From the NCBI GenBank assembly GCA_035649995.1, contig DASRIM010000061.1, positions 1 to 62,771 on the forward strand: 62,771 nt of DNA, given 5' to 3'. Position 1 is the stretch's first letter, and each line of letters begins with the position of its first letter. Positions 1 through 28,445 of this stretch are shown one piece after another. This DNA is from Pyrinomonadaceae bacterium (GTDB taxonomy: Bacteria; Acidobacteriota; Blastocatellia; Pyrinomonadales; Pyrinomonadaceae). The notes under the pieces are model-generated. The model was not told where the DNA came from. It saw only the letters and a list, made by a program, of their open reading frames with translations, and did no database searches. A program made the position numbers and the translations under genes.

Positions 1-347
1 TGAATCACTCCTCCATACGCGCACATCAGCTTGCAGTTGTTGTCGAGCGCCGGCATGTTGCCGATCAGGACCGTGGGCGCGCCCGGCACCCACGGCGCGG
101 GAATCACGGGAATGCAAGGCATCGGAGTCAACGCACCCAAAGCAGCGGCCGTCGCGGACGCCACAGTTGGGTTCGCCAGCGACGAACACATGCCGAACGG
201 CATGATGTTGACGAGCGGTTTGTTGTCCATGATGTTGGCGTCCGGCGTGCTCGTGAGCGTGCGCTTGTCAGGCAGCACGACGAGCGTGCTCGGCGCCGCG
301 CCGAAGCTGCACTGCAACGTCGCGCCCATGCATACTTGAAACGGCAT
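1..347 (-). CDS. DUF4280 PAAR-like T6SS spike-tip protein (3' end cut by window edge)
   Basis: Absent from the ORF track because it runs off the left edge. My reverse-complement translation from the ATG at 345-347 gives MPFQVCMGATLQCSFGAAPSTLVVLPDKRTLTSTPDANIMDNKPLVNIMPFGMCSSLANPTVASATAAALGALTPMPCIPVIPAPWVPGAPTVLIGNMPALDNNCKLMCAYGGVI. This is the Cys/Gly pattern I recognise as DUF4280. It starts 12 nt after the vgrG stop. Confidence 0.8.
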   Translation of the reverse strand, partial: MPFQVCMGATLQCSFGAAPSTLVVLPDKRTLTSTPDANIMDNKPLVNIMPFGMCSSLANPTVASATAAALGALTPMPCIPVIPAPWVPGAPTVLIGNMPALDNNCKLMCAYGGVI

Positions 348-359
348 AATTTCGGACCT

Positions 360-2267
360 CTAGTTAATCTTCACCATTGAGCCCTTGATCGTCGTGATGC
401 CGCCGCTTTCCACAGTGTTCGAGGCTTGTCCTTTATTAGTAATATCCATCTGCGATTCATGCGTCATCGACTGTCCGGACTTGATCGTGACCGAGCCAGT
501 GACGTCGATGGTCAAGTTTCCCGTCACTTTCAATTCATAATTACCACTGATCGTTTGCGTAAAATTTCCCTTGTTCGTGTGCGTCTCGTCGCCCGTTATC
601 GTCAGGCTGCGCGTTCCTTTGACTTCGTAAGTTTCGTTGCCGGTGTCGACCTTAAACGTGCGGTTGCCTTTCGAGACGACGTAAGTGTCGTTGCCTTCCT
701 GGATCGTGGTCGAGCGATCCTGCTTGATGGTGTTGGTTTCGTTGTGCAGCACGCTCTTGGTGCGATCGTTTTCGACGACGATCGTCTGATCTTTCTGGGC
801 GTGGAAGTAGAGTTCCTCGGAGTCTTTCTTGTCCTCGAACCGGATCTCGTTGAAGCCGTTGCCGCCTTTTGAAGAGTTCGTCTTGACCGTGCTCTTCGTC
901 TGCTCGTCAGGAAGCGTGTAAGGAACAGTCTGATCGCTGTTGTAGACGGCGCCAGTGACCAGCGGCTGATCGGGGTCACCTTCTAAATAACTGACTATTA
1001 CTTCCTGACCGATGCGCGGGAGAAAGATTCCGCCCCACTGCTTGCCGGCCCAACCGTAATCCACGCGAATCCAGCACGAACTGTTCTCGTCGTTTGTACC
1101 CAACTGGTCCCAGTGAAACTGGACTTTGACGCGGCCGTACTTATCGGTCCAGATCTCCTCGCCGGCTTTGCCTACGACGACCGCCGTCTGCGTGCCCGAG
1201 ATGCGCGGTTTGGGCGTTACGAGCGGCGGACGAAACGGAACATCCGCCGGAAAGGCGGTGAACGAGTTGGTGTAACTCTCCTGCGTGGCCGCGTGCGAGA
1301 CGGACTGCAACACGTAAGTCTGATTGACGTCGGCGCGATAGTGGTCCTTCAACTCAAACTTGTGCCCCGCGACAAACGCGCGCACGAAGCCGTCGCCGCG
1401 AATGATCTTCTGCGGTTGCTCCAGCGCGTCGAGACGCAGATCCGCGCGCTTCTGTCCGGCGTCTTTCTTCAGAAAACCGCCGGGATACTCGTAAACCTTG
1501 TAAGCCGGCGTATCGCTCTGCGATTGCGACTTCAGGTCCGTGTTCGGCGTCTCGAAGTTGTAGTCGTCGTGAGTGTAGGCACCGCTGACGACCTGCTCTT
1601 CGACCATGCAGCGAATGATCGCGAGGTCCTGCGTGTGGTCGATCAGCGACTGCCGGAAATGGACGGGCGTCGACTCGAGCCCGGGGCACGTCTGATGCCC
1701 GTCGGCGTCGTCGCCGAGCACGAGCGTGTGTTTGTCTGAGCTGTGTTCGAAGTAGTAGAAGATGCCCTCTTCTTCCATCAGGCGCGAGACGAAGTTGAAA
1801 GCGGATTCGTTGTATTGGACGCAATATTCGCGCGTGTCGTAAGTGGCCTTCAGGTCGTTGCGGAAGTCAGTGAAACCGAGATCCGAGAAGACGGCTTCGA
1901 TGATGTCCGGCACGGTCTTGTTTTGAAAGATGCGGCAGTCGCTGGTCTTTGTCAGGAGCCAGAGCCACGGGTGAATATCGGCGAAGTAGCGCGTGAGGCG
2001 CAGGTTCGTTTCCTCCTGCACGAACCGTCCGACGATGCCGTTTAGATAGTGCTCGGTGTCGTTTCCGAGCGTGAGCGTGACGGTGACGGCTTTGCCGACG
2101 ATTGCGGAGAAGTCGATCGCGTTGTCTTCCGAGACCATCTCGAGCGTGAAATGGAAGAGGCCCGAGATCTGTTCTTCGCCGCGGAACGAACGCAGCAAGA
2201 GTTTGTTCGGTCCCAACGGGGTTGTGACCTTCAGTTTGAGATTGTCTTGAATGTAAGCAGAGCTCAT
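360..2267 (-). CDS. vgrG: T6SS spike protein VgrG (TssI), no C-terminal effector extension
   Basis: ORF 360..2405. The internal ATG at 2267 (MSSAYIQDNLKLKVTTPLGPNKLLL) overlaps the tssG stop as ATGA. VgrG hallmarks are present: FHFTLEM, RYFADIHPWLWLL, CVQYNESAFNFVSRLMEEEGIFYYF, VQFHWD and a C-terminal beta-helix repeat run. Confidence 0.93.
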   Translation of the reverse strand: MSSAYIQDNLKLKVTTPLGPNKLLLRSFRGEEQISGLFHFTLEMVSEDNAIDFSAIVGKAVTVTLTLGNDTEHYLNGIVGRFVQEETNLRLTRYFADIHPWLWLLTKTSDCRIFQNKTVPDIIEAVFSDLGFTDFRNDLKATYDTREYCVQYNESAFNFVSRLMEEEGIFYYFEHSSDKHTLVLGDDADGHQTCPGLESTPVHFRQSLIDHTQDLAIIRCMVEEQVVSGAYTHDDYNFETPNTDLKSQSQSDTPAYKVYEYPGGFLKKDAGQKRADLRLDALEQPQKIIRGDGFVRAFVAGHKFELKDHYRADVNQTYVLQSVSHAATQESYTNSFTAFPADVPFRPPLVTPKPRISGTQTAVVVGKAGEEIWTDKYGRVKVQFHWDQLGTNDENSSCWIRVDYGWAGKQWGGIFLPRIGQEVIVSYLEGDPDQPLVTGAVYNSDQTVPYTLPDEQTKSTVKTNSSKGGNGFNEIRFEDKKDSEELYFHAQKDQTIVVENDRTKSVLHNETNTIKQDRSTTIQEGNDTYVVSKGNRTFKVDTGNETYEVKGTRSLTITGDETHTNKGNFTQTISGNYELKVTGNLTIDVTGSVTIKSGQSMTHESQMDITNKGQASNTVESGGITTIKGSMVKIN

Positions 2268-3814
2268 TGTCTGTGATGTAACTGGTTGTAAGCGAGCTCT
2301 TCCGAGTCGTCGCAATTGATATAGGCGTCGATTGTTCGCCTGAGGTTCTGATCGTTGATCATCGCGAACGACAGGTGTTCGCGCCTGATGACGGAGAATT
2401 CGCAATCAGTCAACGCCAGTGCAGTTTCACTGTAAGGCTTGTGTTTGAGCAGCGCGCGCTCACCAAAACAATCACCTTCGCTCAACACGCCGATAACCGT
2501 CTCCTTGCCGTGCTCTTCGGAGCGCGACAGTTGCACCTTGCCGCGCCGGATGATGTACATCGATGTGGCAACTCTGCCTTGCAACGTCACCAGCGTGTTC
2601 TTCTGGACCGTGCGCGTCATGAGTCCGAGCAACGCCGTCTGTTTACTGCGCGGCAGGCGCTGAAGAATGCGGCTCTTGATCGTGCCGGCCTCCGCGCGAA
2701 GCGCATCAGGCGTGATCACGATCGAGGGATTCTCCTGCGCCGGCGGCCAATGGCCGTTGCTCTTGAGTTTTATGTTTCGTGCCGGACCGAGCCATGACGT
2801 CCACGAGAGCGCCGGCTCAGAGTTCAACTCAACAGCCGGAATCTCCTCGGTTCGCAAGACCAGGCGGACGTTGAATTCAAACTCGTCTTTTACGTAGAAA
2901 CGCACGAGGTCGCAGAGCACGCCGAAGCGCCACTCCGTCGGCAGGAAACCCTCGAAGTCGGCCAAACTCAACGGACCAAGTTGAATCTCAAATCGCGCCT
3001 GTTGGTCCCAGACGCGCGTGCCGAGGATCACTGTGTCGTGGCCGAGACGTTGGTTAGTGCCCGACTCGCCGATCGTGGTCCACTGATCTTCCTCGAGATC
3101 GGACCACTTGCCGACAAACTGAGTGGTCTCAACGTCGACTTGAAAATAATCGGTGAGGATCCGCTTCAGTCCAGCCATCGAACGAGGCTGCTGCGCAAGA
3201 ATGCCGGCGTAGTAAAGCAGCGCACGGTCGGGAACCTGCATGCGGCTCTGCAAGCGCGGCGTCCGCATGCCGATCAGTGAATACAGGTAACGCGCGATCT
3301 GATCGTCGCCCGGCGCGACAGAACCAAGACCGACTCGATGATGTTTGCGGATCCGGTAGAGCAGCGAGACTAAACGATGATTGAAAATGTCGAGAAAATC
3401 TTTGAGCGCCTTGTCGTTGTGCGACTCGCGCTGGAGGACCAGTTCGGTGCTGGGAATGTCGAGTGCGCCGAGGCAGCCTGCCAGGCCGAGAAAGTTGACC
3501 GTCATCTCGGCGGGCGCCGTCGGCTGTTCGCGCTGCGGAATGTCCCTCGTGCGTTTGACCTGGGCAATGTCGCTGGCAGGGAAGTCGAGCTTTACTGCCG
3601 ATCGAAAATTGATGATCTCTTTGGCTGGATCCGCGCCCTGGCCCGGCGACGACAATGATTCACCATGTCTCGTGTGAATGATCTCGAGCAGGCGAACGGC
3701 CTGGAAAAAGTCGAAGCGATGACCTTCGGCGAAGAGCCAGTCTTCAACGCCGCCGCTCTTTCCCCAACCGTATTTATTTACAGCAGGACTGTTTCGCCCG
3801 ACATCGGCTCCCAT
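2264..3814 (-). CDS. tssG: T6SS baseplate protein TssG fused to a C-terminal cNMP-binding-like domain
   Basis: The N-terminal ~345 aa look like TssG (FDFFQAVRLLEI, RFEIQLGPLSLADF). Residues ~380-495 show a cNMP-binding beta-roll pattern (MYIIRRGKVQLSR...GVLSEGDCFGERALL...ALALTDCEFSVIRREHL). The frame is continuous, and the gene overlaps tssF by 37 nt and vgrG by ATGA. Confidence 0.85.
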   Translation of the reverse strand: MGADVGRNSPAVNKYGWGKSGGVEDWLFAEGHRFDFFQAVRLLEIIHTRHGESLSSPGQGADPAKEIINFRSAVKLDFPASDIAQVKRTRDIPQREQPTAPAEMTVNFLGLAGCLGALDIPSTELVLQRESHNDKALKDFLDIFNHRLVSLLYRIRKHHRVGLGSVAPGDDQIARYLYSLIGMRTPRLQSRMQVPDRALLYYAGILAQQPRSMAGLKRILTDYFQVDVETTQFVGKWSDLEEDQWTTIGESGTNQRLGHDTVILGTRVWDQQARFEIQLGPLSLADFEGFLPTEWRFGVLCDLVRFYVKDEFEFNVRLVLRTEEIPAVELNSEPALSWTSWLGPARNIKLKSNGHWPPAQENPSIVITPDALRAEAGTIKSRILQRLPRSKQTALLGLMTRTVQKNTLVTLQGRVATSMYIIRRGKVQLSRSEEHGKETVIGVLSEGDCFGERALLKHKPYSETALALTDCEFSVIRREHLSFAMINDQNLRRTIDAYINCDDSEELAYNQLHHRQ

Positions 3815-5643
3815 TTCTTCCAGATCCCTTCGCGCTGTTTGCTCTTAACAATTAACTGCGTGAACGAATTGACCGCGGCGTATGACGCGAGAAAGCGGTT
3901 CAGCACCGCGCCAAACAGAAACCCGCCGCTGCCTTCGTAATAGTCTTCGTCGAGCACGAGCGTCACTTCATTGCCGCGGCAGAAACCACGCCACGGGTCG
4001 TTGCCGATGTGGCGCATGACTTTGCGGCACGACATCTCCTTGATCCCTTCGATCAACTTGTGGTGCGACTCCTTGTGACAGTAGAGACGCAGGATCTCTT
4101 TCAACGCCGGCAAGCTGTCTCTCTCGTCCGACAGCGACAGGTGATTGAGTGACAGATGTGAAACGAGGCGCCACGCGGTTGCGCCGTGCGAAGGCGCCGG
4201 CACCGGATGAGTGGGTTTTCCCAAACACACGATCGGCCGTTCTTTATCGAGGGGCGCGTGCTGTTCCATTTGAAACACAGCGCCGACGGGGAGTTCAGAC
4301 GGGAGATCCCGGTTGGTACATAACGTGTGCGCGTAGACGGTCTGCATCGCAGGCAGACGAGGCTTCAGATCCAGATCGAGAAACGTCAGGACCATCTCCG
4401 TGCCGGGGACGTCCTTGCGTTGCGCCGGCACGCGGCGGCTGTGCCAGAAGGCGCTGTGATTTGAAGTTTCGAGCCGGTGATTGTAGGAGTAGAACGGCTC
4501 GAGCTGCTGCGTCTTGTCCGTGTCGTTTGAAGAAGCCGAGACGGACAGGATCGAGTGAATCTCGGTCGTGCGCTCGCGTCTTTTGTCCGGGATCAGAGGA
4601 TATTCGAGACTGCGGTGATCCAAACGAATCGGTTCGGTCGTCTTCGGAAACAGGTTGATGATCGGCGTGCAGCCGAGGCAGAACGTGTTTTCGTCGATGA
4701 CGAGGTTTTCCGTCGGGCGGCGGTTGAGGAGCAGGAAGACTTCGAACTCGCTCGCTTCGTTGTTCGGCATGAAGTCGAGCAGCGTGTTCGTCTTCTGGCG
4801 GCGTTCGGGATTGCTTTGATCGAAACAAAGATCGAAGAACAGGTACTGTTTTGGAAACGCGAAGTACTCGAGCAGCAGCATGTAGCCCGGATGGACGTTG
4901 GGCGGATGCGGCAGCATGTCGTCGTACGCTTCGAGTCCGACGGGCTGGATGGCGTTCGGCCCGAGGAAAATGGGCGTGCGCGCGCCCGGGATTTGAATAG
5001 CGACGTCGTGGACGTCGCAGAACAGCATCTCGTAAAGCGTCTTGACTGACATCGGATCGCCGTTCAGGTAGAAGCGCAGGCGATCGACGGAGAGTTCGTT
5101 GAGTTTTCCGCCGGGCAGACATTCGACTTTCAGCTTCAGCGCCATCACGGCCTTGCTGTCTGCGTCGATGAAGTTCGAATGGCGTGTGCTTTCGAGAACG
5201 GCGCCGCCGACTTTCAACGGCCACAGCGTAACCGGGTAACAGGTTCGGAAACGACAGAAGACGCCGTTTGCGGCGTCGGCGAAGAGGGAAGTGTGACGAT
5301 CGATCGTGAAGCCGGTCGTCATCTTTCCCTGTTCCGGATCGATGTTGAATTGAGCGATCGCCATCGACGGGATCGGGCTCGTCAGTTGCGGGTACAGAAT
5401 GTTGAGCAGCGCGCTGGTGATGTCGGGAAACTCGCTGTCGATCTCGTGTTGCAAACGTCCGGTCAGGAAGGCGAACGCCTCGATGAGCCGTTCGACGTGC
5501 GGATCGGCGCACTCGTCGCGTCCGAGCTCGAGCCGCTTCGCGACTTTGGGATAGCGTTCCGCAAACACTCCTCCCATGCGGCGCAGGTACGTGAGCTCCG
5601 ACTTGTAGTACTTCAAGAGTTCTTCGTGGCTATTCGCTATCAT
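3778..5643 (-). CDS. tssF: T6SS baseplate protein TssF (ImpG/VasA)
   Basis: 621 aa. The N-terminus LLKYYKSELTYLRRMGGVFAERYPKVAKRLEL...DPHVERLIEAFAFLTGRL is the typical TssF signature. It sits between tssE and tssG. Confidence 0.93.
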   Translation of the reverse strand: MIANSHEELLKYYKSELTYLRRMGGVFAERYPKVAKRLELGRDECADPHVERLIEAFAFLTGRLQHEIDSEFPDITSALLNILYPQLTSPIPSMAIAQFNIDPEQGKMTTGFTIDRHTSLFADAANGVFCRFRTCYPVTLWPLKVGGAVLESTRHSNFIDADSKAVMALKLKVECLPGGKLNELSVDRLRFYLNGDPMSVKTLYEMLFCDVHDVAIQIPGARTPIFLGPNAIQPVGLEAYDDMLPHPPNVHPGYMLLLEYFAFPKQYLFFDLCFDQSNPERRQKTNTLLDFMPNNEASEFEVFLLLNRRPTENLVIDENTFCLGCTPIINLFPKTTEPIRLDHRSLEYPLIPDKRRERTTEIHSILSVSASSNDTDKTQQLEPFYSYNHRLETSNHSAFWHSRRVPAQRKDVPGTEMVLTFLDLDLKPRLPAMQTVYAHTLCTNRDLPSELPVGAVFQMEQHAPLDKERPIVCLGKPTHPVPAPSHGATAWRLVSHLSLNHLSLSDERDSLPALKEILRLYCHKESHHKLIEGIKEMSCRKVMRHIGNDPWRGFCRGNEVTLVLDEDYYEGSGGFLFGAVLNRFLASYAAVNSFTQLIVKSKQREGIWKKWEPMSGETVLL

Positions 5644-5645
5644 GG

Positions 5646-5720
5646 TTTGAAACTCGCTTTATCCGTGTTCCCCATGGGTGTTGCGTTAGCTGATGCTGCG
5701 GACATAGTAGGAACACGGAT
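5646..5720 (-). repeat. T6SS intercistronic element, copy A (tssE-tssF spacer), with an 11-bp inverted repeat
   Basis: The core at 5646-5693 resembles 6217-6266 and contains the identical 15-mer TTTATCCGTGTTCCC (5658-5672). ATCCGTGTTCC (5661-5671) is the exact reverse complement of GGAACACGGAT (5710-5720). The predicted hairpin spans from the tssE stop to 17 nt before the tssF ATG. Confidence 0.6.
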
Positions 5721-6190
5721 TACACGAATTCCGCCGTTCCACTCTTGTTGTTCAGGGTCACGGGAAAGGAGACGGGCTCGGAGTAGAGACCGATTGCCAG
5801 TTCCGCACTGATGTTGAGCCACAACGCCGACTCGGCGCCGAACGCTGGTCCAACTTCGACGCGGACCTGGCGCAGGCGTGGTTCAAATGCCGTAATTGTC
5901 TGGCCGACGATGGAGGCGATCAGCGCGTGATCGTCGGCGTTGTGCGGGGAGAGTGACGAGAAATCCGGAATGCCGTAGTTGACGACAGACCTTTCCTCAT
6001 CGCCGAGCTGGTGCAACGGGATGGAGCAGCGCGTGTTGAGCAGCCGTTCCAGCTCACGCCGCACCGAGGCTCGCAATTGTTTTTGGTTGAGGATGCGCAA
6101 GGGCTGCTCGTCGAGGTGTCCGTCGGAGACGTCCACCAGGCGATCGAAGAGCAGCGCTCGCGCACCCGCTATTGGTTTAGGTTGAGACAT
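5720..6190 (-). CDS. tssE: T6SS baseplate protein TssE (gp25/GPW-like)
   Basis: ORF 5720..6328. The likely start is the ATG at 6190 (MSQPKPIAGARALLFDRLVD...). The motifs LRASVRRELERLLNTR and VVNYGIPDFSSL are typical of TssE. Confidence 0.88.
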   Translation of the reverse strand: MSQPKPIAGARALLFDRLVDVSDGHLDEQPLRILNQKQLRASVRRELERLLNTRCSIPLHQLGDEERSVVNYGIPDFSSLSPHNADDHALIASIVGQTITAFEPRLRQVRVEVGPAFGAESALWLNISAELAIGLYSEPVSFPVTLNNKSGTAEFV

Positions 6191-6266
6191 GGAAACACCA
6201 GAACATAGTGTGCTATTTTGGAATTCGGTTTTATCCGTGTTCCCTATGAGCGCTCGCGTTAGTTGA
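6191..6266 (-). repeat. T6SS intercistronic element, copy B (hcp-tssE spacer)
   Basis: 6217-6266 (TTTGGAATTCGGTTTTATCCGTGTTCCCTATGAGCGCTCGCGTTAGTTGA) aligns with 5646-5693. Shared blocks are TTTATCCGTGTTCCC, ATG and GCGTTAG-yTGA. ACATAGT and a GGAA(A)CAC(C/G)G motif are also shared but in a rearranged order (6191-6209). Confidence 0.6.
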
Positions 6267-6269
6267 ACC

Positions 6270-6755
6270 TTACGCGTTGACGTTCTTGGCCAGGTCCCAC
6301 TTGGTATCGACGTGACCCTGTTCCGCACCCTCGGCTTTCTGAGTGTGGAAGTCCCACGTGATGTGGTTGTAGTTCATGGTTATGGTCTCGACGGGTTTGT
6401 CGCCGCCGCCGCCGCCGATCGACACCGAAGAGAGAACGACGTTCTTCAACGTGTATTTGATTAACGGAATCACCGCGCCCTTGTCGTTACGTCCCACCAC
6501 CACCTCAACGCTCGTGAAGTTATCGCCCTTGCAGCAAGATTCGTTGAGCTTCGGCGACGACTGATCGAGGTACTTGGTGATCGTGAAGTCCTGGTGATTC
6601 GGCTTGCCGGAGGTGCGTTCCGTGTTGCTCACGTCGCCCGTGATCTGCATCGCCACACCATGACTAAACGACAACAGTTCGATTTGAGCTGCGAACTTGT
6701 CCATCGTGCTGGTTCCGGGAATCGCCGGATCCATCTTCATCAACAATACGTCCAT
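6270..6755 (-). CDS. hcp: T6SS tube protein Hcp (TssD)
   Basis: 161 aa, with an Hcp1-family pattern (IELLSFSHGVAMQ, QDFTITKYLDQSSPKL, YTLKNVVLSSVS). There is a strong SD (AAGGAGG) upstream of the ATG. Confidence 0.93.
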   Translation of the reverse strand: MDVLLMKMDPAIPGTSTMDKFAAQIELLSFSHGVAMQITGDVSNTERTSGKPNHQDFTITKYLDQSSPKLNESCCKGDNFTSVEVVVGRNDKGAVIPLIKYTLKNVVLSSVSIGGGGGDKPVETITMNYNHITWDFHTQKAEGAEQGHVDTKWDLAKNVNA

Positions 6756-6771: not shown

Positions 6772-8286
6772 TTACGCAGCCGCGGGTGGCGGCAGTTCGG
6801 CGACGAGACGGATCGAAGCCGTGAGCTCATCGAGTTGGAAGTGCGGGCGCAGGTAGACGACCGCCTTGTAAACGCCAGGCTTGCCCACGACGTCTTCGAC
6901 GTCGATGCGGGCTTCGCGCAGCGGATACGAGGCCTTCGAGCTCTGCGACGCACGGTCGTCGAGCAGGACGTAGTCCGCGATCCACTTGTTCAAGTAGTCG
7001 GAGACGTTCTCCTTCGTCATGAAACTGCCGACCTTGTCGCGCATCATCGCCTTGATGTAGTGCGCGAAGCGGGAAGCGGCCATGACGTACGGCAGTTGGC
7101 TCGACAGACGGGCGTTCGCCGTCGCTTGCGGATCCTGGTAGACCTTCGGCTTCTGCGCAGTCTGTCCGCCGAAGAACGCCGCGTGATCGGTGTTCTTGCG
7201 ATGGACCAGCGTGATGAAACCGAGATCGTTCAGCTCCTTCTCGCGGCGATCGGTGATGGCCACTTCAGTCGGGCACTTCAACACGACGTCGCCTTCATCG
7301 GTCCTGAAGTTGATAGCCGGAAGTCCTTCGACGAGGCCGCCGCCTTCGACTCCGCGAATCGCAGCCGTCCACTTGTACAGCGCAAACGCGTTGGTGATGC
7401 GTTCCGCCAAAGCGTACGCGGCGTTGCCCCAGCAGTAGTCTTTGGGCTGACCGTTGACCTCTTCCTGGAAGTCGACTTCATCGGCAGGCAGGCGGCCGGT
7501 GATCCGTTGCTTCTCGTCTTCGCCCTTCTGATTCGGACGAACGTCCTTGCCGTACGGCGAGCGAAGCAGGAAGTGCGGCAGACAGAGCGCGACGTAACGC
7601 GAGTCTTCGCTGTCGCGGAATGATCTCCACGGCACCAGCTCGGTGCTTTCGAACAACTTCGCGAGATCGCGAGGATTGCCGAGCTCGTCGAAGGAGTCCA
7701 TGTCGAACATCTGCGGAGCTGCTGCCGCGATGAACGGAGCATGCGCGGCCGCGGCCACGTTCGACATTTTCTCCAGCCACTTGATGTCCTGCGGGCTGCG
7801 GCCAAACTCGTAGTCGCCGATCAGCACGCTGTAAGGGCTGCCGCCGAAAGTGCCGTACTCTTCCTCGTAGATCTTCTTGAACTGCGCGCTCTGGTCGAAC
7901 TCGACCGCGCGTTCGAGATCCTTTTGAATCTCGTCTTTCGTGGCGTTCAAAAGACGAAGCTTCAGCATCGTGCCGGTCTCGGCGCGGCTGACGAGGTAGT
8001 GAAGTCCGCGCCACGACGATTCGAGCTTGCAGAACGCGTCGTGATGCATCACTTCGTTGAGCCCTTCGTTGACTTCCTGATCGAGGGCGGCGATGCGCTT
8101 GTTGATTGAGCCCACGAGGTCTGACTCGGTGGTGAGCTCGATCTCTTTCGCCTCGACGGCGGCGATCAGTTCCGACACGGCTTCGATAGCCTGCCGCGCC
8201 TGCGTGTGATCGCGGACGATTTTCGAGTCGAGGGTTTGGTGGAACGTTTCCAGTTTGTCCAGCAGTTCTTTTTCTGAGGTGCTCAT
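6772..8286 (-). CDS. tssC: T6SS contractile sheath large subunit TssC (VipB)
   Basis: 504 aa. It shows TssC motifs (GDYEFG, LLRSPYG, SRFAHYIKAMMRDKVG, YLRPHFQLDELTASIRLV). The start overlaps the tssB stop (TAATG). Confidence 0.95.
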   Translation of the reverse strand: MSTSEKELLDKLETFHQTLDSKIVRDHTQARQAIEAVSELIAAVEAKEIELTTESDLVGSINKRIAALDQEVNEGLNEVMHHDAFCKLESSWRGLHYLVSRAETGTMLKLRLLNATKDEIQKDLERAVEFDQSAQFKKIYEEEYGTFGGSPYSVLIGDYEFGRSPQDIKWLEKMSNVAAAAHAPFIAAAAPQMFDMDSFDELGNPRDLAKLFESTELVPWRSFRDSEDSRYVALCLPHFLLRSPYGKDVRPNQKGEDEKQRITGRLPADEVDFQEEVNGQPKDYCWGNAAYALAERITNAFALYKWTAAIRGVEGGGLVEGLPAINFRTDEGDVVLKCPTEVAITDRREKELNDLGFITLVHRKNTDHAAFFGGQTAQKPKVYQDPQATANARLSSQLPYVMAASRFAHYIKAMMRDKVGSFMTKENVSDYLNKWIADYVLLDDRASQSSKASYPLREARIDVEDVVGKPGVYKAVVYLRPHFQLDELTASIRLVAELPPPAAA

Positions 8287-8807
8287 TATTCTTTACCTCC
8301 TTCGTTCCCCGGTTGCTCGGTCGCCGCCGGTTCCGCAACCATCTTCCTGATCTCCTCGACCTTCGCCTTGAGCTCGTTGCGCTTGGTCTCGTCGGTCAGC
8401 ACTTCGAGAAACTTCTGTTGCAGCTTGACGTTGCCGTCGAGCTTGGCGACGGCGTCGGACAGGCGCGTGCGCTTGTCGTAAGCGGTCTTCTTGTCGATCT
8501 GCTCGAGGACTTGGATCGGGCTGAAGTCGTCGAGTTTTTCGAAAGCCAACGGTTTCGTGTTGATCTCGAGTTTCGGACCGATGGACTTCATGACTTCGTT
8601 GAAATTGTCGCGATCGATCTCGATGTACTTGCGATCGCGAAGGGGGACTCGGTTCGGATCGGATACGTTTCCTGAAAGGTCGGCCAGGATCCCGACGACG
8701 AAAGGAAGTTCCATCTTCACGAAGGAACCACGAGTTTCTACGTCGTACGTGATCTGCACCCGCGGAGGACGTATACGATCCAGTTTGTGTTGTGTGCTTT
8801 CTGGCAT
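8286..8807 (-). CDS. tssB: T6SS contractile sheath small subunit TssB (VipA)
   Basis: 173 aa. PPRVQITYDVETRGSFVKMELPFVVGILADLSG is the classic TssB core. An AAGGAG SD is present. Confidence 0.95.
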   Translation of the reverse strand: MPESTQHKLDRIRPPRVQITYDVETRGSFVKMELPFVVGILADLSGNVSDPNRVPLRDRKYIEIDRDNFNEVMKSIGPKLEINTKPLAFEKLDDFSPIQVLEQIDKKTAYDKRTRLSDAVAKLDGNVKLQQKFLEVLTDETKRNELKAKVEEIRKMVAEPAATEQPGNEGGKE

Positions 8808-8892: not shown

Positions 8893-10008
8893 TCATGTGG
8901 GCCACCTCTTTCCGGTCAGCCGCAGCAACCTGTCGATCTCGTTCATCTCACCTTCGTTGCGGACGATTTGTTGAAGCAGTTCAGGCAAGCTCATGCTGCC
9001 CCACTCGACGGCTCGTTTGACCAGGTAAGGCGTGGGGCTATGGGGTTCGGTGCGCAGCAGGTAGTCCGCGGCTTCGGACAGCCGGCGATAGGCCTCGGCG
9101 CGGCTGCGGATCGGCCCGCCACTGGACCAGAGTTCGACGTCTGCTTCTCCGTCAGCTTCTCCGGCGTGCGCGGGATCTACTTCTTCGCTGAATATTTCGC
9201 TGTCGTCCTGGCGCGTGTGCAGATCGTGCGAGACGAGCTGTTCGATCGCGCACAGCGCTTCTTTGAACTGCCGCAAGCCGGGCGCGTCTTTGCCGCACTT
9301 CTCGTCGAGTATCTCTTCGACGGCAACGCAGCCATCGATCGCCTGGCCCAGTTCTTCGACCAGTTCGACGTAAAACGCACTGTCGGTTTCAGCTACGGCA
9401 GCGCGGAAAGTGGCGACCGTCGGGTTGATCTTCGCCAGCGCCTCCTGCAAAGCGCGGGGATCTTTCATCGCGAGGTTTTCAAAGTGACAGGCGCTTTCCC
9501 AATCGAGATAGGAGTAGCTCTCGTTGCTGACTTCACCCGGCAGTGTCAACGGAAGCTGTTTCAGCTTGAGCGTCAGTTTTTGTTCGACCCAGTCGATCGG
9601 CGCGACGCGGCCTTCGAGTTCGTCGACTTCGAGACTCGGATACACATGGTCCCAAAACTGTTCGCACAGCCCCGACAGCAGTCGTAGTCCGTTCGTCACT
9701 CCGGCAAAGCCGTAGAGGTGCAGCCATGCTTCGAGCAGCCAACTCGCGATCTGTAGATCCTTTGTGCGGTTCGTGAGAGCCTCGACGCAAATCGCTTCAA
9801 CAGCCGCCCAGTCCGCGCGTTTCAAACTCGACTTGTAGATCCCCTGGCTGAGCGTTGGATCGTCTTCGCGCCGCGCATCTGCGATGCGATCGTAAGTTCC
9901 CTGGTAGCGCAGCGGCTCGCCGGCCGGGTTGGAGCCGGGGATCGGTTGCAGCAGTTCCTGAATATCTATCGTTTGTGATGGCGTCGGCGATTGAGTGACG
10001 GCGTTCAT
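8893..10008 (-). CDS. tssA: T6SS protein TssA (ImpA N-terminal domain)
   Basis: ORF 8893..10149. The likely ATG is at 10008 (MNAVTQSP...), 4 nt after the tssM stop. It shows an ImpA_N pattern (LLQPIPGSNPAGEPLRYQGTYDRIADARREDDP) and a C-terminal PHSPTPYLVKRAVEW motif. Confidence 0.85.
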   Translation of the reverse strand: MNAVTQSPTPSQTIDIQELLQPIPGSNPAGEPLRYQGTYDRIADARREDDPTLSQGIYKSSLKRADWAAVEAICVEALTNRTKDLQIASWLLEAWLHLYGFAGVTNGLRLLSGLCEQFWDHVYPSLEVDELEGRVAPIDWVEQKLTLKLKQLPLTLPGEVSNESYSYLDWESACHFENLAMKDPRALQEALAKINPTVATFRAAVAETDSAFYVELVEELGQAIDGCVAVEEILDEKCGKDAPGLRQFKEALCAIEQLVSHDLHTRQDDSEIFSEEVDPAHAGEADGEADVELWSSGGPIRSRAEAYRRLSEAADYLLRTEPHSPTPYLVKRAVEWGSMSLPELLQQIVRNEGEMNEIDRLLRLTGKRWPT

Positions 10009-10012
10009 GGTT

Positions 10013-13000
10013 TTATTCCTGTTCGGTCGTGTTCCCGAGCACGACGGGCAAGATCGGAACGGGCGGCGCCTTGCGTGGGAAGCAGGGCAGCAGTAACGGT
10101 TCCTGCTTGTTTGCTGTGACCAGACTGAGCCGCATGAAAACTTCGGCATTCGAAGTCTTCAGATCCGGACGCTGCGGTAGTCCCGCCGGATCGGGATCGG
10201 TCCTGATCGTGAACTTGAGTGTGTAAGGATCGGGATCGTAGCCCTGATCGCACTCGGCGGGGGTACCGGTGCGTTTGAGCATGAGACCGTGTCGCAGGAG
10301 CAACGTCATCAGCGACCAGCGATCGTCATACGCAAAGACTGCTACCCGATCCTTAGCTTTGACTGCGTTGGGGGTCGCAGTCGTAACCGGCACCGTCGGC
10401 GAATCCTTGGCCCAGCGCAGAGTCAAGCGCACCGGATCGCCAAAAACCCAACGTCCATTGACAGCGTCGCTGAGATAAGAAAACTTCTGTTTTCCGACTT
10501 CAAAGTTCCAGTCGATAATCTGGTTGGCGGAGATCTCCTCTTCTCGATTGACGCGGAACTGGATGTTGAAATCGAGCATCGGTCCCTGCTTCTTCTCGAG
10601 GAAAGGACCAAAGAACTCGCGCAGCTTCGCAACCTGGGCCAGAAACTCCGTGGCTTTTTCAGGCGACGCGCCGAAGTCAGCACTGCGGACCAGTGCGTCG
10701 TGCGCAGCTTTCTCTTTGCTGTCGAACAAACGGAAGAACTTCAGCAGTTCCGACGGATCGAGATCCGGAAAATCAGGACGCGTTCCCACATCGGTGAATG
10801 GAAAACCGCCGGACAGGTTCTTGTTGAATGCTTCTTCGATCTGGCGATAGTTCTCCAGCGCCGCCAGCGTGTCGTGGACCGCCTTGATGCGCGCGAGCTC
10901 GTTACAGCGGCGATAGAACTGCGCGCGCATCGAGTTGCGGATCCTGAGGAAGTAATCTCGCGACGAGTCGGTGTTTAGTTTGAGAGAGCTGGAACAACTG
11001 TCGATGCTGACCTTGTCCATGTCGATCGCGATGAAGCTCTCGAGCGAGGAGATCGGATTGCCGGGCTGTTTGTTGTCGAACGCGTCGAGATCCGTAAGTA
11101 TCTCGTTCCAGTCAAAACTGGATTGCGCGTAGATATTTTGCTGCGCGGCAAAGGTGAGCAGCGGCACGGCGAGATCGCGCGCAAGAAACGCGATGTTCTT
11201 TCGCTGGACGGCGAGGTAGGTGTTCAGGTCTTCGAGACTCGCAAGATCGTAAGCGGCGTGCGACACCGGCTGGCTGCCGTTCCACCACGCGAAGTCGGAA
11301 TGCTTCATCACGTAGAAACGCTGCGCCATGAAGTCGCGGTAGATCCCTCGCAGCAGGTAATCGACTTGCGTAGACAACACGCCGCGCAACTCGCCGTCGA
11401 TGCCGAGCGGCGTGGAGATTTGCAGGACTCGCGTGAGCGTCGGCTGCGCTTCCTGAAGGTTGCGGATCTCTGCGATCAGACTCGCGCGCAGTGCGGAACC
11501 TTCGGTTGACGGTGCGAGCGCCTGGTATTTGCGGGCCTGACGAAACAGCCGGCTCATGCGCGTCTTGACTCGCGAACGCGCCGCTTGTTTGACTGAGTTG
11601 TCGAGATACTCCGTGCGTTCGTAAGTCTTCGTCGCTACGAATTCTTCGTATTGATCGTAAGCCGCGATCGCCTCGCGCAGCGCGTCCTGGTCCCACACGA
11701 GTACGCGCCGGACGAGGTGCTGGTAGCGAGGTTGTTCAGACTGGAAGGGCAGGTCGTAATCGACCGGTTCTCTCGTCATGAACTCCTGCCGCCGCAGATC
11801 CTGAAGCGCTTTCTTCAACTCGCCGAGCGCGGTTGAAAGCGTCATTCCATGGAACGGCGAGTGCGGATCGAAGACGAACGTCGAGAGCCACGTGTAATCA
11901 GGCCGGTTGAGGAGAGCTTCTGTCTCGGCGATGTCGTCGAGATGATCGTAGGTGACGCCTTTCTGACTGAACGACGCCGCGTAGAAGTCTTCGACCAGGT
12001 CGCCGACGCGGGTGGCGCTCTGTTTATAGAAGGAGGCGGAATCGAGGGGCCGCCCCTGGGCCATGAACACGGCCTTCTTGTAAAGATAATTTTCGCTGTC
12101 CATTTCCTCGGGCAACGGCGTGTGCTCAAGGTAATTGACGAGGTGTCGCAGCGTGGTGAGGGAATCGGGATCGTTGCCGACGAGCCGATTGTAACGCTCG
12201 AGATTGGTACGAAATTCGGCCAACTCTTCAACGTAGAGACTCAACTGAAACGCGGCATTGAACTGCGCTGCTGAATCATCGGCCGTTTCGTCAGCCATCG
12301 CCGGATCTTTCTCTTCGGATGCCGCCTCGGCAACGGCTTTGACCGCGTGGGTCTGGGGAGCATTCAGCAGGCTGTCTCCTCGCTCCTGCATGTCCATTCG
12401 GAGCGATTCGAAGATGACGAACTTGAACGCGGCCGCGATGGAAGTTTCGAGCCGGTGATTGATGCGGCTGAACCACGAGGTCGGGATGAACGGAGAATCG
12501 AACCTGTCGGCGTTCATCCTCGCCATGCCGCTGAACAGCCTTCTTTCACCGCTCTCCAACAACTGGTGTCGACGATCGAGCCAGTTCCGGTCCGGCGATT
12601 TGGCGCCTGAGCGTTTGTACTCGGCACGGTACTTTTCGATCGTCTTCAGATCGTTGCGTTCTTCGATTAAAAACCCGTAGAGCTCGTCTTCCTGACGCGC
12701 CAGGCTGCCGTAAGTCAAAGCGAGTCCGCCGAGGCCGATGACCATGATCAGGATCGACAGCACTTGCGCCGCCAACACAGTGCGATTGCGCGACAGGGCA
12801 ATACGGCGAATGGGTTGGGCCAACGAGGATTCGCTGAAGATCTTTTCCTTGAAAAGGTCGGCCAGGAAGACAGGCTTTCTTTGCACCGGCGCCGTCGTGA
12901 CGACGGCTGCCATGTCCGTCGATCCCGTGAGCTCATTTATCGGCTGCAACTGAAGCAGGTCGTCGTTCTCGACGCCGGGTTCGCCACAGAAATAGACGCC

Positions 13001-14002
13001 GCGAAAGATGTACGACTCGTGGTAAGCGCTCTGCTTGAAGAGACAGTCGAGGTAGACGCCCAGCGCCTCGCGCATCGACTGGACCGTGGGCGGCAACAGA
13101 AACAGATTGTCGGCGTCTTCAATCTCCTCGCGTTCCGCATACATTTCAAACTGAAGCCACATCAACTGCTTGTGAATACTCTCGAACGCCTGCGCCACGA
13201 GCTCCGGCCGGTAAGCCGTTTCGATCGTCGCCGGATTGGACCAACCGAACATCTGCCGGCGCAGGTTTTCCGGAAGCTGTTTGCAGAAGCTCGAGAAGCC
13301 CGTGATCTCGTCACACTTCGTGATGACGATGTAGATTGGCAGCCGCATGCCGAGGATCTTTTGCGCCTGCCAGAGTTTCTTGTAGAGAGAGGTGGCTTTT
13401 TGTTCGAGATCGAACCGCCGCTGATGGTCCAGTTCGCCCTCGGTGACGAGATCGGTGCAGGGAATCGTCAAAACGAGACCGTCGAGCGGCCGCTGCGGCC
13501 GGTGTTTTTGCAGCAAACGGAGGATCGAGTTCCAGCCGCGATGATTGGCGGTGCCGTCGTTGCGCAAAACGAAGTCGCCGGCCACGTCCATCACGACGCC
13601 GTCGTCGAAGAAGTACCAGTTGAGACGCCGTCCGCTTCGATCGACGAGTTCTTTCACTGACTCGTGAAGACCGTTACTCTCGAGCAGCGAGGTTTTCCCC
13701 GACTTCGACTCGCCCGCCAACAGATACCACGGCGCCCGATAGCGATAGTCGCGGCCCGTGACGTAGCTTTTCAGAATGCGGAGGGCGCGCCGGAAAGACG
13801 TGCGGAGCTCGAGGTCCGACGCGTATTGGAGAAACTCGGTGCCCGAAGCTTCTTTCTTGTCAGGCTCGGCTTTCGCGGCGGCCGGATCGGCGGCGAATGA
13901 AATCTTGCGCGAGCGGCGAATTACCAGGTAGAGAAATATCGCCGTGCCTGCCAGCAGCAGGAAAATCGCGATTAGTATCAGTAACACGTTGGGGAACGAC
14001 AT
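10013..14002 (-). CDS. tssM: T6SS membrane complex protein TssM (IcmF-like)
   Basis: The ORF track starts at a TTG (14017). The ATG at 14002 (MSFPNVLLILIAIFLLL) has an AGAAGG SD. It has N-terminal TM helices, a Walker A motif (GESKSGKTS) and a long periplasmic region; about 1329 aa. Confidence 0.92.
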   Translation of the reverse strand: MSFPNVLLILIAIFLLLAGTAIFLYLVIRRSRKISFAADPAAAKAEPDKKEASGTEFLQYASDLELRTSFRRALRILKSYVTGRDYRYRAPWYLLAGESKSGKTSLLESNGLHESVKELVDRSGRRLNWYFFDDGVVMDVAGDFVLRNDGTANHRGWNSILRLLQKHRPQRPLDGLVLTIPCTDLVTEGELDHQRRFDLEQKATSLYKKLWQAQKILGMRLPIYIVITKCDEITGFSSFCKQLPENLRRQMFGWSNPATIETAYRPELVAQAFESIHKQLMWLQFEMYAEREEIEDADNLFLLPPTVQSMREALGVYLDCLFKQSAYHESYIFRGVYFCGEPGVENDDLLQLQPINELTGSTDMAAVVTTAPVQRKPVFLADLFKEKIFSESSLAQPIRRIALSRNRTVLAAQVLSILIMVIGLGGLALTYGSLARQEDELYGFLIEERNDLKTIEKYRAEYKRSGAKSPDRNWLDRRHQLLESGERRLFSGMARMNADRFDSPFIPTSWFSRINHRLETSIAAAFKFVIFESLRMDMQERGDSLLNAPQTHAVKAVAEAASEEKDPAMADETADDSAAQFNAAFQLSLYVEELAEFRTNLERYNRLVGNDPDSLTTLRHLVNYLEHTPLPEEMDSENYLYKKAVFMAQGRPLDSASFYKQSATRVGDLVEDFYAASFSQKGVTYDHLDDIAETEALLNRPDYTWLSTFVFDPHSPFHGMTLSTALGELKKALQDLRRQEFMTREPVDYDLPFQSEQPRYQHLVRRVLVWDQDALREAIAAYDQYEEFVATKTYERTEYLDNSVKQAARSRVKTRMSRLFRQARKYQALAPSTEGSALRASLIAEIRNLQEAQPTLTRVLQISTPLGIDGELRGVLSTQVDYLLRGIYRDFMAQRFYVMKHSDFAWWNGSQPVSHAAYDLASLEDLNTYLAVQRKNIAFLARDLAVPLLTFAAQQNIYAQSSFDWNEILTDLDAFDNKQPGNPISSLESFIAIDMDKVSIDSCSSSLKLNTDSSRDYFLRIRNSMRAQFYRRCNELARIKAVHDTLAALENYRQIEEAFNKNLSGGFPFTDVGTRPDFPDLDPSELLKFFRLFDSKEKAAHDALVRSADFGASPEKATEFLAQVAKLREFFGPFLEKKQGPMLDFNIQFRVNREEEISANQIIDWNFEVGKQKFSYLSDAVNGRWVFGDPVRLTLRWAKDSPTVPVTTATPNAVKAKDRVAVFAYDDRWSLMTLLLRHGLMLKRTGTPAECDQGYDPDPYTLKFTIRTDPDPAGLPQRPDLKTSNAEVFMRLSLVTANKQEPLLLPCFPRKAPPVPILPVVLGNTTEQE

Positions 14003-14020
14003 TGTTACCTTCTGCAACGA

Positions 14021-14956
14021 TCACTTAGTAGCGGGCGCCAGCGAGTCCAGCCGTCTCTCTATCTCGACGATCTCGTTGTTCGCTTGTTCGAGTCGAGACG
14101 TCAGGCTCAACCAGATTCCGTGCGACGCGGCGAGGTAGGTCAAAAACACGAGACCCAGCACCGCGAGCCACACGCGCGGATTTGTAAGTTGCTTTCTCTT
14201 CTCTGTTCTTACGTTTTGAACGTAGCTGTCAGGAAAGGCGACCTTCGATTCGTTAGCGAGGTCCGCCGGTTTGTTGAAAATAAAGTCGAACAGATCGCGG
14301 CGATAGCGACGCAGCTTCCCGTGATCGTTCAGTCCGTGATACTTGCCGCGGAAGCCAAGCGACAACGCGCTGAGATACACGGCCGCAAGACTCTTGTTCG
14401 CCGGATCGCGATGCCGTAACAAACGGTCCAACTTGTCGAAGACCTTCTCGCCGGCGATGTGAGATTGAAACAACGCCGACTCCAGCAGGTTTGAAGTCCA
14501 TGCCCGCCGGCCTTCCCAGTTGAGGTGAATGAAAACGTCGTCGGCGAAAGCGGCCATGACGTACTGTGCTTCGAGATAGTTGTCGGTCGGCTTGCCGGCG
14601 GCGCGAAGGATCTGAATGCCGTTGCGGCGGAACAGTGCGATCATGTTTTGCCAGACCAACAGGGTCAGACTGGTTAACTCGCCGTGCGGTTCGGGAGTCG
14701 AATCCAGCGAACCGCGAACGGCAAGCGACGTGATCTTTTCGCTGCCCGAGAAAGTTTCAAGCAGAACAGTATCGAGGGGCGGAAGTTTCGCTGTGTTTCC
14801 GTTGGCGCCATTACCGTCGAGTGGTTCGGCCGGCGCGAGCTCCGCGGACGACATGCCACCGCTGGTCGCGATCATCTGCTTGAGACGAATGACCTCGGTG
14901 TAGAAGTCGCGAAACTGCGCGAGCAGGAACGATTCGTTTTGTTGCATCGCCGTCAT
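14021..14956 (-). CDS. tssL: T6SS membrane protein TssL (DotU family), no OmpA/PG-binding extension
   Basis: 311 aa. It has a DotU-like core (YVMAAFADDVFIHL..., AAVYLSALSLGFRGKY) and a single C-terminal TM helix (VWLAVLGLVFLTYLAASHGIWL). Confidence 0.85.
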   Translation of the reverse strand: MTAMQQNESFLLAQFRDFYTEVIRLKQMIATSGGMSSAELAPAEPLDGNGANGNTAKLPPLDTVLLETFSGSEKITSLAVRGSLDSTPEPHGELTSLTLLVWQNMIALFRRNGIQILRAAGKPTDNYLEAQYVMAAFADDVFIHLNWEGRRAWTSNLLESALFQSHIAGEKVFDKLDRLLRHRDPANKSLAAVYLSALSLGFRGKYHGLNDHGKLRRYRRDLFDFIFNKPADLANESKVAFPDSYVQNVRTEKRKQLTNPRVWLAVLGLVFLTYLAASHGIWLSLTSRLEQANNEIVEIERRLDSLAPATK

Positions 14957-16450: not shown

Positions 16451-16981
16451 CTACTTAGAAGGAGCGCAGGGTTTCGCGGGCTCTTTCAGCAACTGGACGC
16501 AAAGGTTATCTTCGCCAAGCGTGATCAAAATGGCTTTGCGTGGATCGATCGGCGCGCGGTGCGCTCCGGCTTTGAAGTAGTTGGCGAAAATAACTCCGCC
16601 GACGACTTCGAACTTCACCGGTACTCGATCCAGTTTCACCTCTTGTCCGGGAACCCATTCCCATCGGCCCGCGTCCAGTCCCGTCTCCTTCGGATAATCG
16701 AGTTTGACCTGGCCGCGCTTTTCAAACCACTCGCCGGCGGACATCTTCATCAGTTCCTGCAACAGCTTCTTGTCTGAAACAAGGACCAGATCGACGGCGA
16801 CCGGGTTGTTGTTGTTGGCTTTTGGGGAGACATGAACTTTAACGTCGAGCTTGCTCTCGCCTGAGGTGCCCGGGATCTTTTTGGGCACTTTCACTTTCGG
16901 ACATGCGGTTAAGAGTAGCAGGGCAACGATTCCGCCTGACGAAAGCAGAAGCGACCGCCTTAACGAGTGCTGGTTTAGCAT
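16451..16981 (-). CDS. tssJ: T6SS outer-membrane lipoprotein TssJ
   Basis: 176 aa. It has a signal peptide with a lipobox (LLLLTAC). It is small and occupies the first position of the operon, directly before tssK; the sequence is consistent with SciN/VasD. Confidence 0.72.
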   Translation of the reverse strand: MLNQHSLRRSLLLSSGGIVALLLLTACPKVKVPKKIPGTSGESKLDVKVHVSPKANNNNPVAVDLVLVSDKKLLQELMKMSAGEWFEKRGQVKLDYPKETGLDAGRWEWVPGQEVKLDRVPVKFEVVGGVIFANYFKAGAHRAPIDPRKAILITLGEDNLCVQLLKEPAKPCAPSK

Positions 16982-19271: not shown

Positions 19272-19312
19272 AGTGGAGCTCCTCATTCAATCTCGTACAA
19301 AATTCGGTAGGC

Positions 19313-28226: not shown

Positions 28227-28445
28227 ACGCTTGTATTGAAAACGATCCTCGTCTCTCACGCGTCATGTAGTAATGCCAAACAACGAAAGTACATGTGTTC
28301 GCTGCCGTACTAATTCGCTCAACGCGTGGGAGTTTAATCACCTAGTAAGAACCGTCTCGACATATGTTTTGGCTAAATGCTGGCATGCTAATTGACGCGG
28401 CTGCAATCGCAGATGAACAAGGGGTCAACAAGGGGTACAGAACTC

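Follow-up and report, generated by a model that had tools for sequence, protein, structure and literature searches.

Post-translational control of the T6SS (type VI secretion system), as it has been described, relies on accessory proteins, namely the PpkA/PppA/Fha phosphorylation system and TagF. A 2023 review of T6SS regulation names the trigger of baseplate assembly and firing as "an uncharacterized signal" and mentions second messengers at the transcriptional level only (PMC10482370). In the baseplate wedge of enteroaggregative Escherichia coli (EAEC), TssG's C-terminal domain and two copies of TssF form a triangular core, and the two loops of this domain each grip a TssK trimer. When T25 was fused to the TssG C terminus, the two-hybrid interactions with TssF and TssK were lost, an effect that its authors ascribed to steric hindrance (PMC6300606). 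Cyclic-nucleotide-binding (CNB) domains are known whose phosphate-binding cassette (PBC) has another residue in place of its arginine: in family 2B encapsulins, Arg has become Trp and cAMP is not bound (PMC11550324), and in trypanosomatid PKA-R, it has become Thr/Asn and purine nucleosides are bound instead (PMC10959531). Here, we analyzed a 62,771-nucleotide (nt) stretch of DNA from a Pyrinomonadaceae bacterium (Acidobacteriota; GenBank assembly GCA_035649995.1, contig DASRIM010000061.1, positions 1 to 62,771; hereafter the window), in which a T6SS cluster encodes TssG fused to a C-terminal CNB fold. We refer to this gene as tssG-CNB.

Results

The tssG-CNB gene encodes a 516-amino-acid (aa) protein in a single open reading frame (ORF) without internal stops. 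The Pfam model T6SS_TssG matched aa 31 to 343 (model positions 2 to 304 of 304; E = 7e-98; 328 bits against a cutoff of 24.6), and the NCBIfam model TIGR03347 confirmed the assignment (E = 2e-95; 319 bits against a cutoff of 143.3). Behind this domain, the Pfam model cNMP_binding (PF00027) matched aa 401 to 482 (E = 3e-21; 75.6 bits, the gathering score being 27.5). After TssG, the NCBIfam search yielded weak matches to CNB-containing families, the best of which was family 2B encapsulin (3e-10), and a phmmer search against PDB sequences returned PKG, PKA-R, CRP, Epac, and related proteins (best E = 4e-19). Since TssG ORFs without a CNB domain end approximately 15 to 30 aa past the TssG model, as seen at 69 other loci, the C-terminal extension amounts to approximately 170 aa.

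Structure prediction agreed with the profile searches. In the AlphaFold2 (AF2) model, the predicted local distance difference test (pLDDT) score was about 80 to 90 across aa ~380 to 500, and this part comprised two N-terminal helices, an eight-stranded beta-roll, the PBC helix (aa 452 to 457), and alphaB/alphaC helices (aa 478 to 500), alphaC being short (about 12 residues) and followed by little sequence. The linker scored below 50 at aa 343 to 359 and contained a strand at aa 364 to 367; in the alignment of relatives, I365, I367, P369, and L372 of this region were almost invariant. The top Foldseek matches in the PDB were all CNB domains (E of about 2e-9, probability 1.0, template modeling score up to 0.8 against isolated CNB targets) and included CRP-family regulators, GlxR, PKG, PfPKA-R, Bd1971, and Trypanosoma cruzi PKA-R. 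Collectively, these data confirmed that the gene is a genuine fusion of TssG with a structurally complete C-terminal CNB fold, the two being joined by a linker of approximately 28 aa.

Both ends of the gene are interlocked with its neighbors. Its TGA stop codon (2264-2266) shares bases with the ATG of vgrG (2265-2267) in the sequence caATGAgc, and its start overlaps the 3' end of tssF by 37 nt, an arrangement that is the same in relatives. A preliminary description of this DNA, made from the letters alone, had read the ORF as an uninterrupted TssG some 170 aa longer than usual, with an ATGA overlap with vgrG and a CNB-like domain at nt ~2330-2677, and had expected a profile search to find TssG N-terminally and cNMP_binding behind it. 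All of this was borne out, the nucleotide coordinates included.

A fusion of this kind could also arise artificially, if tssG and a small separate CNB gene had been joined by a frameshift made in sequencing or assembly, or in a chimeric contig. Among the close relatives, a single database entry (P0083, locus L081) does seem to lack the domain, tssG being followed there by the CNB domain in the next small ORF of 91 aa; however, tssC, hcp, and tssM are broken by frameshifts on the same contig. In addition, the identical 516-aa protein recurs on five independent contigs, which come from three or more samples (a 99% variant occurs on a further contig), the linker itself is conserved, and the single frame is kept in over 200 clusters from several phyla, at identities as low as about 40%. 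Two database searches listed 220 distinct 90%-identity clusters, of which at least 217 carried both Pfam domains with CNB behind TssG. An artifact is thus effectively refuted, and we assign it a very small probability.

A natural split of tssG and CNB into two genes (P0083 and P0076) was likewise rejected, as several T6SS genes are frameshifted in L081, which is a long-read contig. This contig (ENA ERZ25039547 contig_72290, 1.06 Mb), from a metagenome-assembled genome (MAG), carries frameshifts in tssM, tssC, hcp, and tssG, which produce false "split" genes and domain-less TssG database entries such as P0083. We also set aside apparent in-frame TssF-TssG fusions, seen as stop-free frames of 880 to 1160 aa at eight loci (L004, L008, L013, L019, L025, L027, L048, and L067). 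In the two that were tested, L013 and L004, the upstream part had no TssF match in that frame, and these look like long stretches of GC-rich DNA that happen to be stop-free.

To assess selection, we compared codons with those of the closest relatives for which DNA was available (dS of about 0.5). The ratio of nonsynonymous to synonymous substitutions (dN/dS) was 0.13 to 0.16 in the CNB part and 0.07 to 0.08 in the TssG part, and the GC content at third codon positions was equal in both (0.74 versus 0.71). Together with the conservation across clusters, these values indicate that the CNB domain has long been part of this gene and evolves under purifying selection; the fusion is selectively maintained.

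The distribution of the fusion was examined in GTDB species representatives, where 11 of the 80 best TssG loci carried it. Eight of the 11 are acidobacterial (Pyrinomonadaceae/Blastocatellia or unclassified Acidobacteriota), and one of these eight has two CNB domains in tandem; the other three belong to Candidatus Entotheonellaceae (Tectimicrobiota), Candidatus Venteria ishoeyi (Thiotrichales), and an alphaproteobacterial MAG with a weaker match. A check of the lineages upheld these assignments. In a neighbor-joining tree of TssG domains, computed without branch support, the acidobacterial fusions formed one clade, and the other three adjoined fusion-less TssGs; the alphaproteobacterial fusion, for instance, shares 59% identity with a TssG from another alphaproteobacterial source that lacks the CNB domain. 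This placement suggests, within the limits of an unsupported tree, that the fusion was gained more than once or was repeatedly lost and retained. A search with the CNB part alone in a library of 1.84 billion representatives revealed no clear donor family: beyond TssG fusions and their fragments, it returned generic multi-CNB proteins at about 30% identity. The Venteria gene (L082:10001-11443, FMSV02000557.1) is of the Arg-type described below and is located immediately downstream of relA/spoT. Some acidobacterial fusions have two CNB domains in tandem, like PKA-R; they were found at L006:10031-12187 (719 aa; P0127 is equally long) and in P0345, P0349, P0351, P0353, and P0360 (713 to 791 aa). 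In these tandem proteins, the N-terminal helix motif FKSARLPLFF.LP..QLAELIGLMK occurs three times, which suggests a recent internal duplication.

We next turn to the ligand pocket. The HMMER alignment placed Tyr461 on the cassette arginine of PfPKG and PfPKA-R (FGERALLYDEPRSAT / FGELALLKNKPRAAT), the cassette of the window protein, FGERALLKHKPYSETA, being aligned with FGERALLYDEPRSATI (PfPKG) and FGELALLKNKPRAATI (PfPKA-R). Using hmmalign, G451, E452, Y461, and S462 fell on G71, E72, R82, and S83 of CRP. The preliminary description had noted by eye that the phosphate-contacting Arg is Tyr here (KPYSETA) and that the ligand may therefore not be cAMP/cGMP; both alignments uphold the first point, and the substitution supports the second. 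Of 224 CNB domains from the fusion family, 119 had Tyr in the arginine column, 96 had Arg, and 9 had other residues. The family thus comprises two cassette types, a canonical Arg-type, with textbook cassettes such as FGE..L..GKxR[ST]ATV, and a Tyr-type, to which the window clade belongs. In the Tyr-type, the Gly-Glu pair that contacts the ribose 2'-OH (G451 and E452) is 100% conserved, as is Y461, with K459 at 95%, P460 and S462 at 89% each, and T464 to L466 at 96% or more; the cassette as a whole is more strongly conserved than in the Arg-type.

The Arg-type relatives most likely bind cAMP or cGMP. In the Tyr-type, the charge-neutralizing Arg has given way to an invariant Tyr, so its ligand is probably something else: a nucleoside or nucleotide without a cyclic phosphate, another metabolite, or a peptide. 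It could be argued that the Tyr-type still binds cAMP or cGMP, the hydroxyls of Tyr461 and Ser462 and the side chain of Lys459 replacing the Arg contacts, and that T6SS activity is coupled to the levels of cyclic nucleoside monophosphates (cNMPs) just as it would be by the Arg-type relatives. The remaining cassette hallmarks, FGE, Ala454, Ser462 (at the position of CRP Ser83), and Thr464-Ala465, are all present, and the protein is evolutionarily close to Arg-type fusions of the same acidobacterial clade. However, mutation of this Arg in CRP brings a drastic loss of binding to cAMP (PMC11550324, PMC10959531), CNB-like domains that lack it have been reported to be unresponsive to cAMP (PMC11550324), and trypanosomatid PKA-R needed the Arg restored for a cNMP response (PMC10959531). 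Moreover, a Tyr fixed in 119 of 119 domains, accompanied by further clade-specific conserved positions, suggests a changed specificity. We therefore consider retained binding of canonical cNMPs improbable.

A Tyr at the cassette Arg is not confined to TssG. It occurred in 42 of 468 (~9%) non-TssG CNB domains among the best library matches, with motifs such as KPY or RPY, mostly in large multi-CNB proteins of 600 to 980 aa with three to four CNB domains (P0145, P0156, P0157, P0167, P0185, and others). The Tyr-type cassette may thus mark a wider, uncharacterized class of ligand.

The genes around tssG-CNB form a T6SS operon that looks complete up to the cut edge of the window inside the DUF4280 gene (Table 1). 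On one strand, the order is tssJ-like, tssK, tssL, tssM, tssA, tssB, tssC, hcp, tssE, tssF, tssG-CNB, vgrG, and DUF4280, and it is the same in Arg-type clusters of Tectimicrobiota and Acidobacteriota. The TssJ-like lipoprotein had no Pfam match and was assigned by position and lipobox. Three ORFs antisense to tssG-CNB (2375-2797, 2981-3280, and 3377-3658, plus strand) had no family matches and were set aside.

Table 1. Positions of tssG-CNB, its parts, and associated T6SS genes (window coordinates unless a locus is given)
Feature	Position	Strand	Evidence or remark
tssG-CNB fusion gene	2264..3814	minus	ATG ORF, 516 aa, zero internal stops
TssG domain, aa 31-343	2786..3724	minus	PF06996 and TIGR03347, full model length
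Linker, aa 344-371	2702..2785	minus	low-confidence stretch, then IVITP (aa 364-368), a short strand that is conserved
Complete CNB-fold domain, aa 372-505	2300..2701	minus	PF00027, PDB phmmer, AF2, Foldseek, dN/dS
PBC equivalent, aa 450-466 (FGERALLKHKPYSETAL)	2417..2467	minus	
Tyr461 codon TAC	2432-2434	minus	
ATGA overlap of tssG-CNB stop with vgrG start	2264..2267	minus	
vgrG, 635 aa	360..2267	minus	Phage_GPD, Phage_base_V, and Gp5 domains
DUF4280 (PAAR-like) gene	3..347	minus	PF14107, E = 1.7e-34; extends past window start
tssF	3778..5643	minus	PF05947, E = 2e-205
tssE (gp25-like)	5720..6328	minus	PF04965; longest ORF, real start probably further downstream (156 aa in L088)
hcp	6270-6755	minus	
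tssC	6772-8286	minus	
tssB	8286-8807	minus	
tssA	8893-10149	minus	longest ORF
tssM	10013-14017	minus	
tssL	14021-14956	minus	
tssK	15082-16434	minus	
Putative TssJ-like lipoprotein gene, first of the cluster	16451-16981	minus	signal peptide and lipobox LLTAC
VWA, PP2C_2, Ser/Thr kinase, and WD40 set	L086:9023-11804; L087:17214-21503		

Searching for other regulators, we found no fha, ppkA, pppA, tagF, kinase, or PP2C gene in the 62.8-kb window, whose T6SS cluster is cut inside DUF4280, and FHA and TagF were seen neither there nor in the inspected relatives. The preliminary description had likewise reported no fha, ppkA, pppA, or tagF. This holds for the visible window; as evidence of a regulator-free cluster, it does not stand, since in L086 and L087, whose TssG-CNB proteins are 89% and 67% identical to that of the window, genes for VWA, PP2C phosphatase, Ser/Thr kinase, and WD40 proteins lie 6 to 8 kb downstream of vgrG. 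There, vgrG and DUF4280 are followed by SPOR, eCIS_core (PF13699), a few unknowns, and then VWA, PP2C, kinase, and WD40. The latter set is a possible PpkA/PppA-like control module, which would be located beyond the window start; phosphorylation-type regulators may therefore lie just outside the window, and the CNB domain need not replace phosphorylation control. In one Arg-type relative, clpV is found about 6 kb after vgrG. Proteins of the DUF4280 (PAAR-like), SPOR-domain, and eCIS_core types recur after vgrG in L081, L084, L085, L086, and L087, and in L083 an SLT lytic transglycosylase takes the SPOR position; this set is a candidate effector or accessory module.

In the TssL protein of the window, the DotU domain starts only at aa 115 and is preceded by about 110 N-terminal residues without a Pfam match. 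The TssL N terminus is a target of PpkA phosphorylation in some systems. A metallo-beta-lactamase-fold protein (17688-19286) was considered as a class II cNMP phosphodiesterase and rejected, since a signal peptide was found at its N terminus and its matches were no more specific than Lactamase_B.

The other 45 kb of the window encode unrelated functions, among them glycosyl transferases, cyanophycin synthetase, CHAT-TPR proteins, extracytoplasmic function (ECF) sigma and anti-sigma factors, and cytochromes. At 41189-44218 (+), 52908-55688 (+), 51327-52896 (+), and 46306-47604 (-) lie genes for two large, caspase-like TPR-CHAT proteins, for an ECF sigma factor, and for two anti-sigma-like proteins of the zf-HC2 type, and a VWA protein is encoded at 49877-51193. 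The cyanophycin synthetase-like gene (28392-31184, +; Cyanophycin_syn N-domain, ATP-grasp, and Mur ligase) lies about 11 kb from the T6SS cluster.

Discussion

What might a CNB fold do on a T6SS baseplate? Our leading prediction, to which we give about an even chance, is a regulatory module that sits on the baseplate wedge and responds to a ligand. Tethered by some 28 residues to the C-terminal end of TssG, it would, by analogy with the EAEC wedge, be well placed to modulate the contacts with TssF and TssK. Each of the six wedges of a baseplate would carry one CNB module beside the TssG C-terminal domain, with its loops that hold the two TssK trimers. As in other CNB proteins, a ligand entering the pocket would reposition the PBC helix together with the helices that flank it, and their movement could expose or occlude TssG surfaces for TssF or TssK binding, wedge polymerization, or docking. 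Baseplate assembly or firing would thereby be coupled post-translationally to an intracellular small molecule, possibly alongside the Ser/Thr kinase/phosphatase pair encoded further downstream in relatives. Given the short alphaC and the little sequence after it in the model, output via the N-terminal helices and the linker, or via intermolecular contacts, appears more likely than CRP-like dimerization. A sensor origin of the domain is plausible, as 96 of the 224 domains keep the canonical Arg and FGE...R[ST]AT and some proteins carry tandem CNB domains as PKA-R does.

Several observations weigh against a ligand-responsive module. The cassette Arg, which neutralizes the cyclic phosphate (CRP R82, RIalpha R209) and is the residue that defines cNMP receptors, is absent, with Tyr in its place throughout the 119 Tyr-type domains. 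Between the window clade and the Arg-type, identity is only about 30% in the CNB part, compared with 55 to 63% in the TssG part, so the function of the CNB part may have shifted. Neither the window nor the 10 kb on each flank of six relatives yielded a cyclase or phosphodiesterase gene. The Venteria tssG-CNB is an orphan, with zero other T6SS genes within 10 kb on either side, and all fusion carriers are MAGs or other assemblies of uncultured organisms. Finally, the full-length AF2 model is poor (mean pLDDT of 54.8); its TssG half is of low confidence, as expected of a subunit that folds together with TssF, and the placement of the CNB part relative to TssG is uninformative.

The loss of the cassette Arg to an invariant Tyr, the strong divergence from the Arg-type, and the lack of linked cyclase genes in the window also speak for the main rival explanation, in which the Tyr-type CNB is a ligand-independent structural or protein-interaction module on the baseplate periphery. 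It might provide an extra contact to TssK, TssL/M, TssA, or an effector or adaptor, or hold a KCNH-like "intrinsic ligand." The family 2B encapsulins, the second-best NCBIfam match of the window protein, offer a precedent, namely a CNB domain with Arg replaced by Trp on a phage-derived structural protein that does not bind cAMP, and the kinase/phosphatase pair of the relatives could provide the regulation. However, the fully conserved ribose-contacting Gly-Glu and the better conservation of the cassette in the Tyr-type are expected of a working pocket and not of a relic, and the Arg-type sister group retains the canonical cassette. The dN/dS well below 1 points the same way, though it would fit a structural role equally. 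We judge a ligand-independent role, in any of these variants, to be less likely than not. Returning to the ligand-responsive module, its full form, with directly ligand-gated T6SS baseplates and two ligand classes, cAMP/cGMP for the Arg-type and a new ligand without a cyclic phosphate for the Tyr-type, is put forward tentatively, as a possibility with less than an even chance.

Literature searches on TssG or T6SS with cyclic-nucleotide-binding or cNMP terms found no description of this architecture, the matches for "TssG + cAMP" being swamped by Campylobacter. The preliminary description had supposed the architecture undescribed, and our searches indeed found no paper; any notion of rarity has to be dropped, with at least 217 clusters, auto-annotated as TssG/ImpH. 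As far as we searched, the architecture is visible in precomputed domain tables and has been neither recognized nor studied: database names are TssG/ImpH only, and the UniRef name of the Venteria copy begins "cAMP-activ...." The domain is conserved in hundreds of sequences from soil Acidobacteriota and occurs in at least three further lineages. A sensor-type domain in a core baseplate subunit would be a concrete means by which the levels of metabolites or second messengers could reach the firing machinery and, if true, this would be the first contractile injection system in the searched literature whose structural baseplate subunit is a receptor for an intracellular signal. The natural Arg/Tyr pair offers a ready-made comparison of specificity, and the Tyr-type cassette may reveal a new CNB ligand, which is relevant to Arg-less CNBs such as those of family 2B encapsulins.

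Compared with known systems, the window protein resembles canonical TssG (ImpH; EAEC Sci-1, PMC6300606) in its full-length PF06996/TIGR03347 match and in the position of its gene between tssF and vgrG, with the tssF overlap, in a standard tssJKLM-A-BC-hcp-EFG-vgrG cluster; it differs by the approximately 170 additional C-terminal residues with a CNB fold. This fold shares with the CNB domains (PF00027) of CRP/GlxR, PKA-R, and PKG, its best sequence and structure matches, the beta-roll with the PBC helix and the B/C helices, the FGE motif, and the Ser/Thr-Ala after the Arg position. It differs in the Tyr at the cassette Arg and in its partner, a phage-tail-like structural protein instead of a DNA-binding, kinase-docking, or channel domain. 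The C-helix of CRP is much longer than the alphaC of the window protein, so a CRP-like coiled-coil dimer is unlikely, as far as the model can be trusted.

Like the accessory PpkA/PppA/Fha and TagF systems (PMC10482370, PMC5995506), the CNB module would act on assembly or firing and not on transcription, and relatives of the window cluster encode PP2C and a Ser/Thr kinase downstream; in contrast to those systems, the candidate sensor is part of a core structural subunit. The family 2B encapsulins (EshA/Sg Enc, PMC11550324) likewise have a CNB domain grafted onto a phage-derived, self-assembling structural protein, with an aromatic residue in place of the cassette Arg (Trp there, Tyr here). However, their CNB domain is inserted into an HK97-fold shell protein and accompanied by an extra metal-binding subdomain, whereas that of the window protein is a C-terminal fusion to a baseplate protein from a family that also has canonical-Arg members. 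In trypanosomatid PKA-R, too, the cassette Arg has been lost, there in connection with a switch from cNMPs to another purine ligand. That switch also needs Ala202 to become Glu, whereas the equivalent Ala454 is retained here (92%), and the trypanosome solution has thus not been copied.

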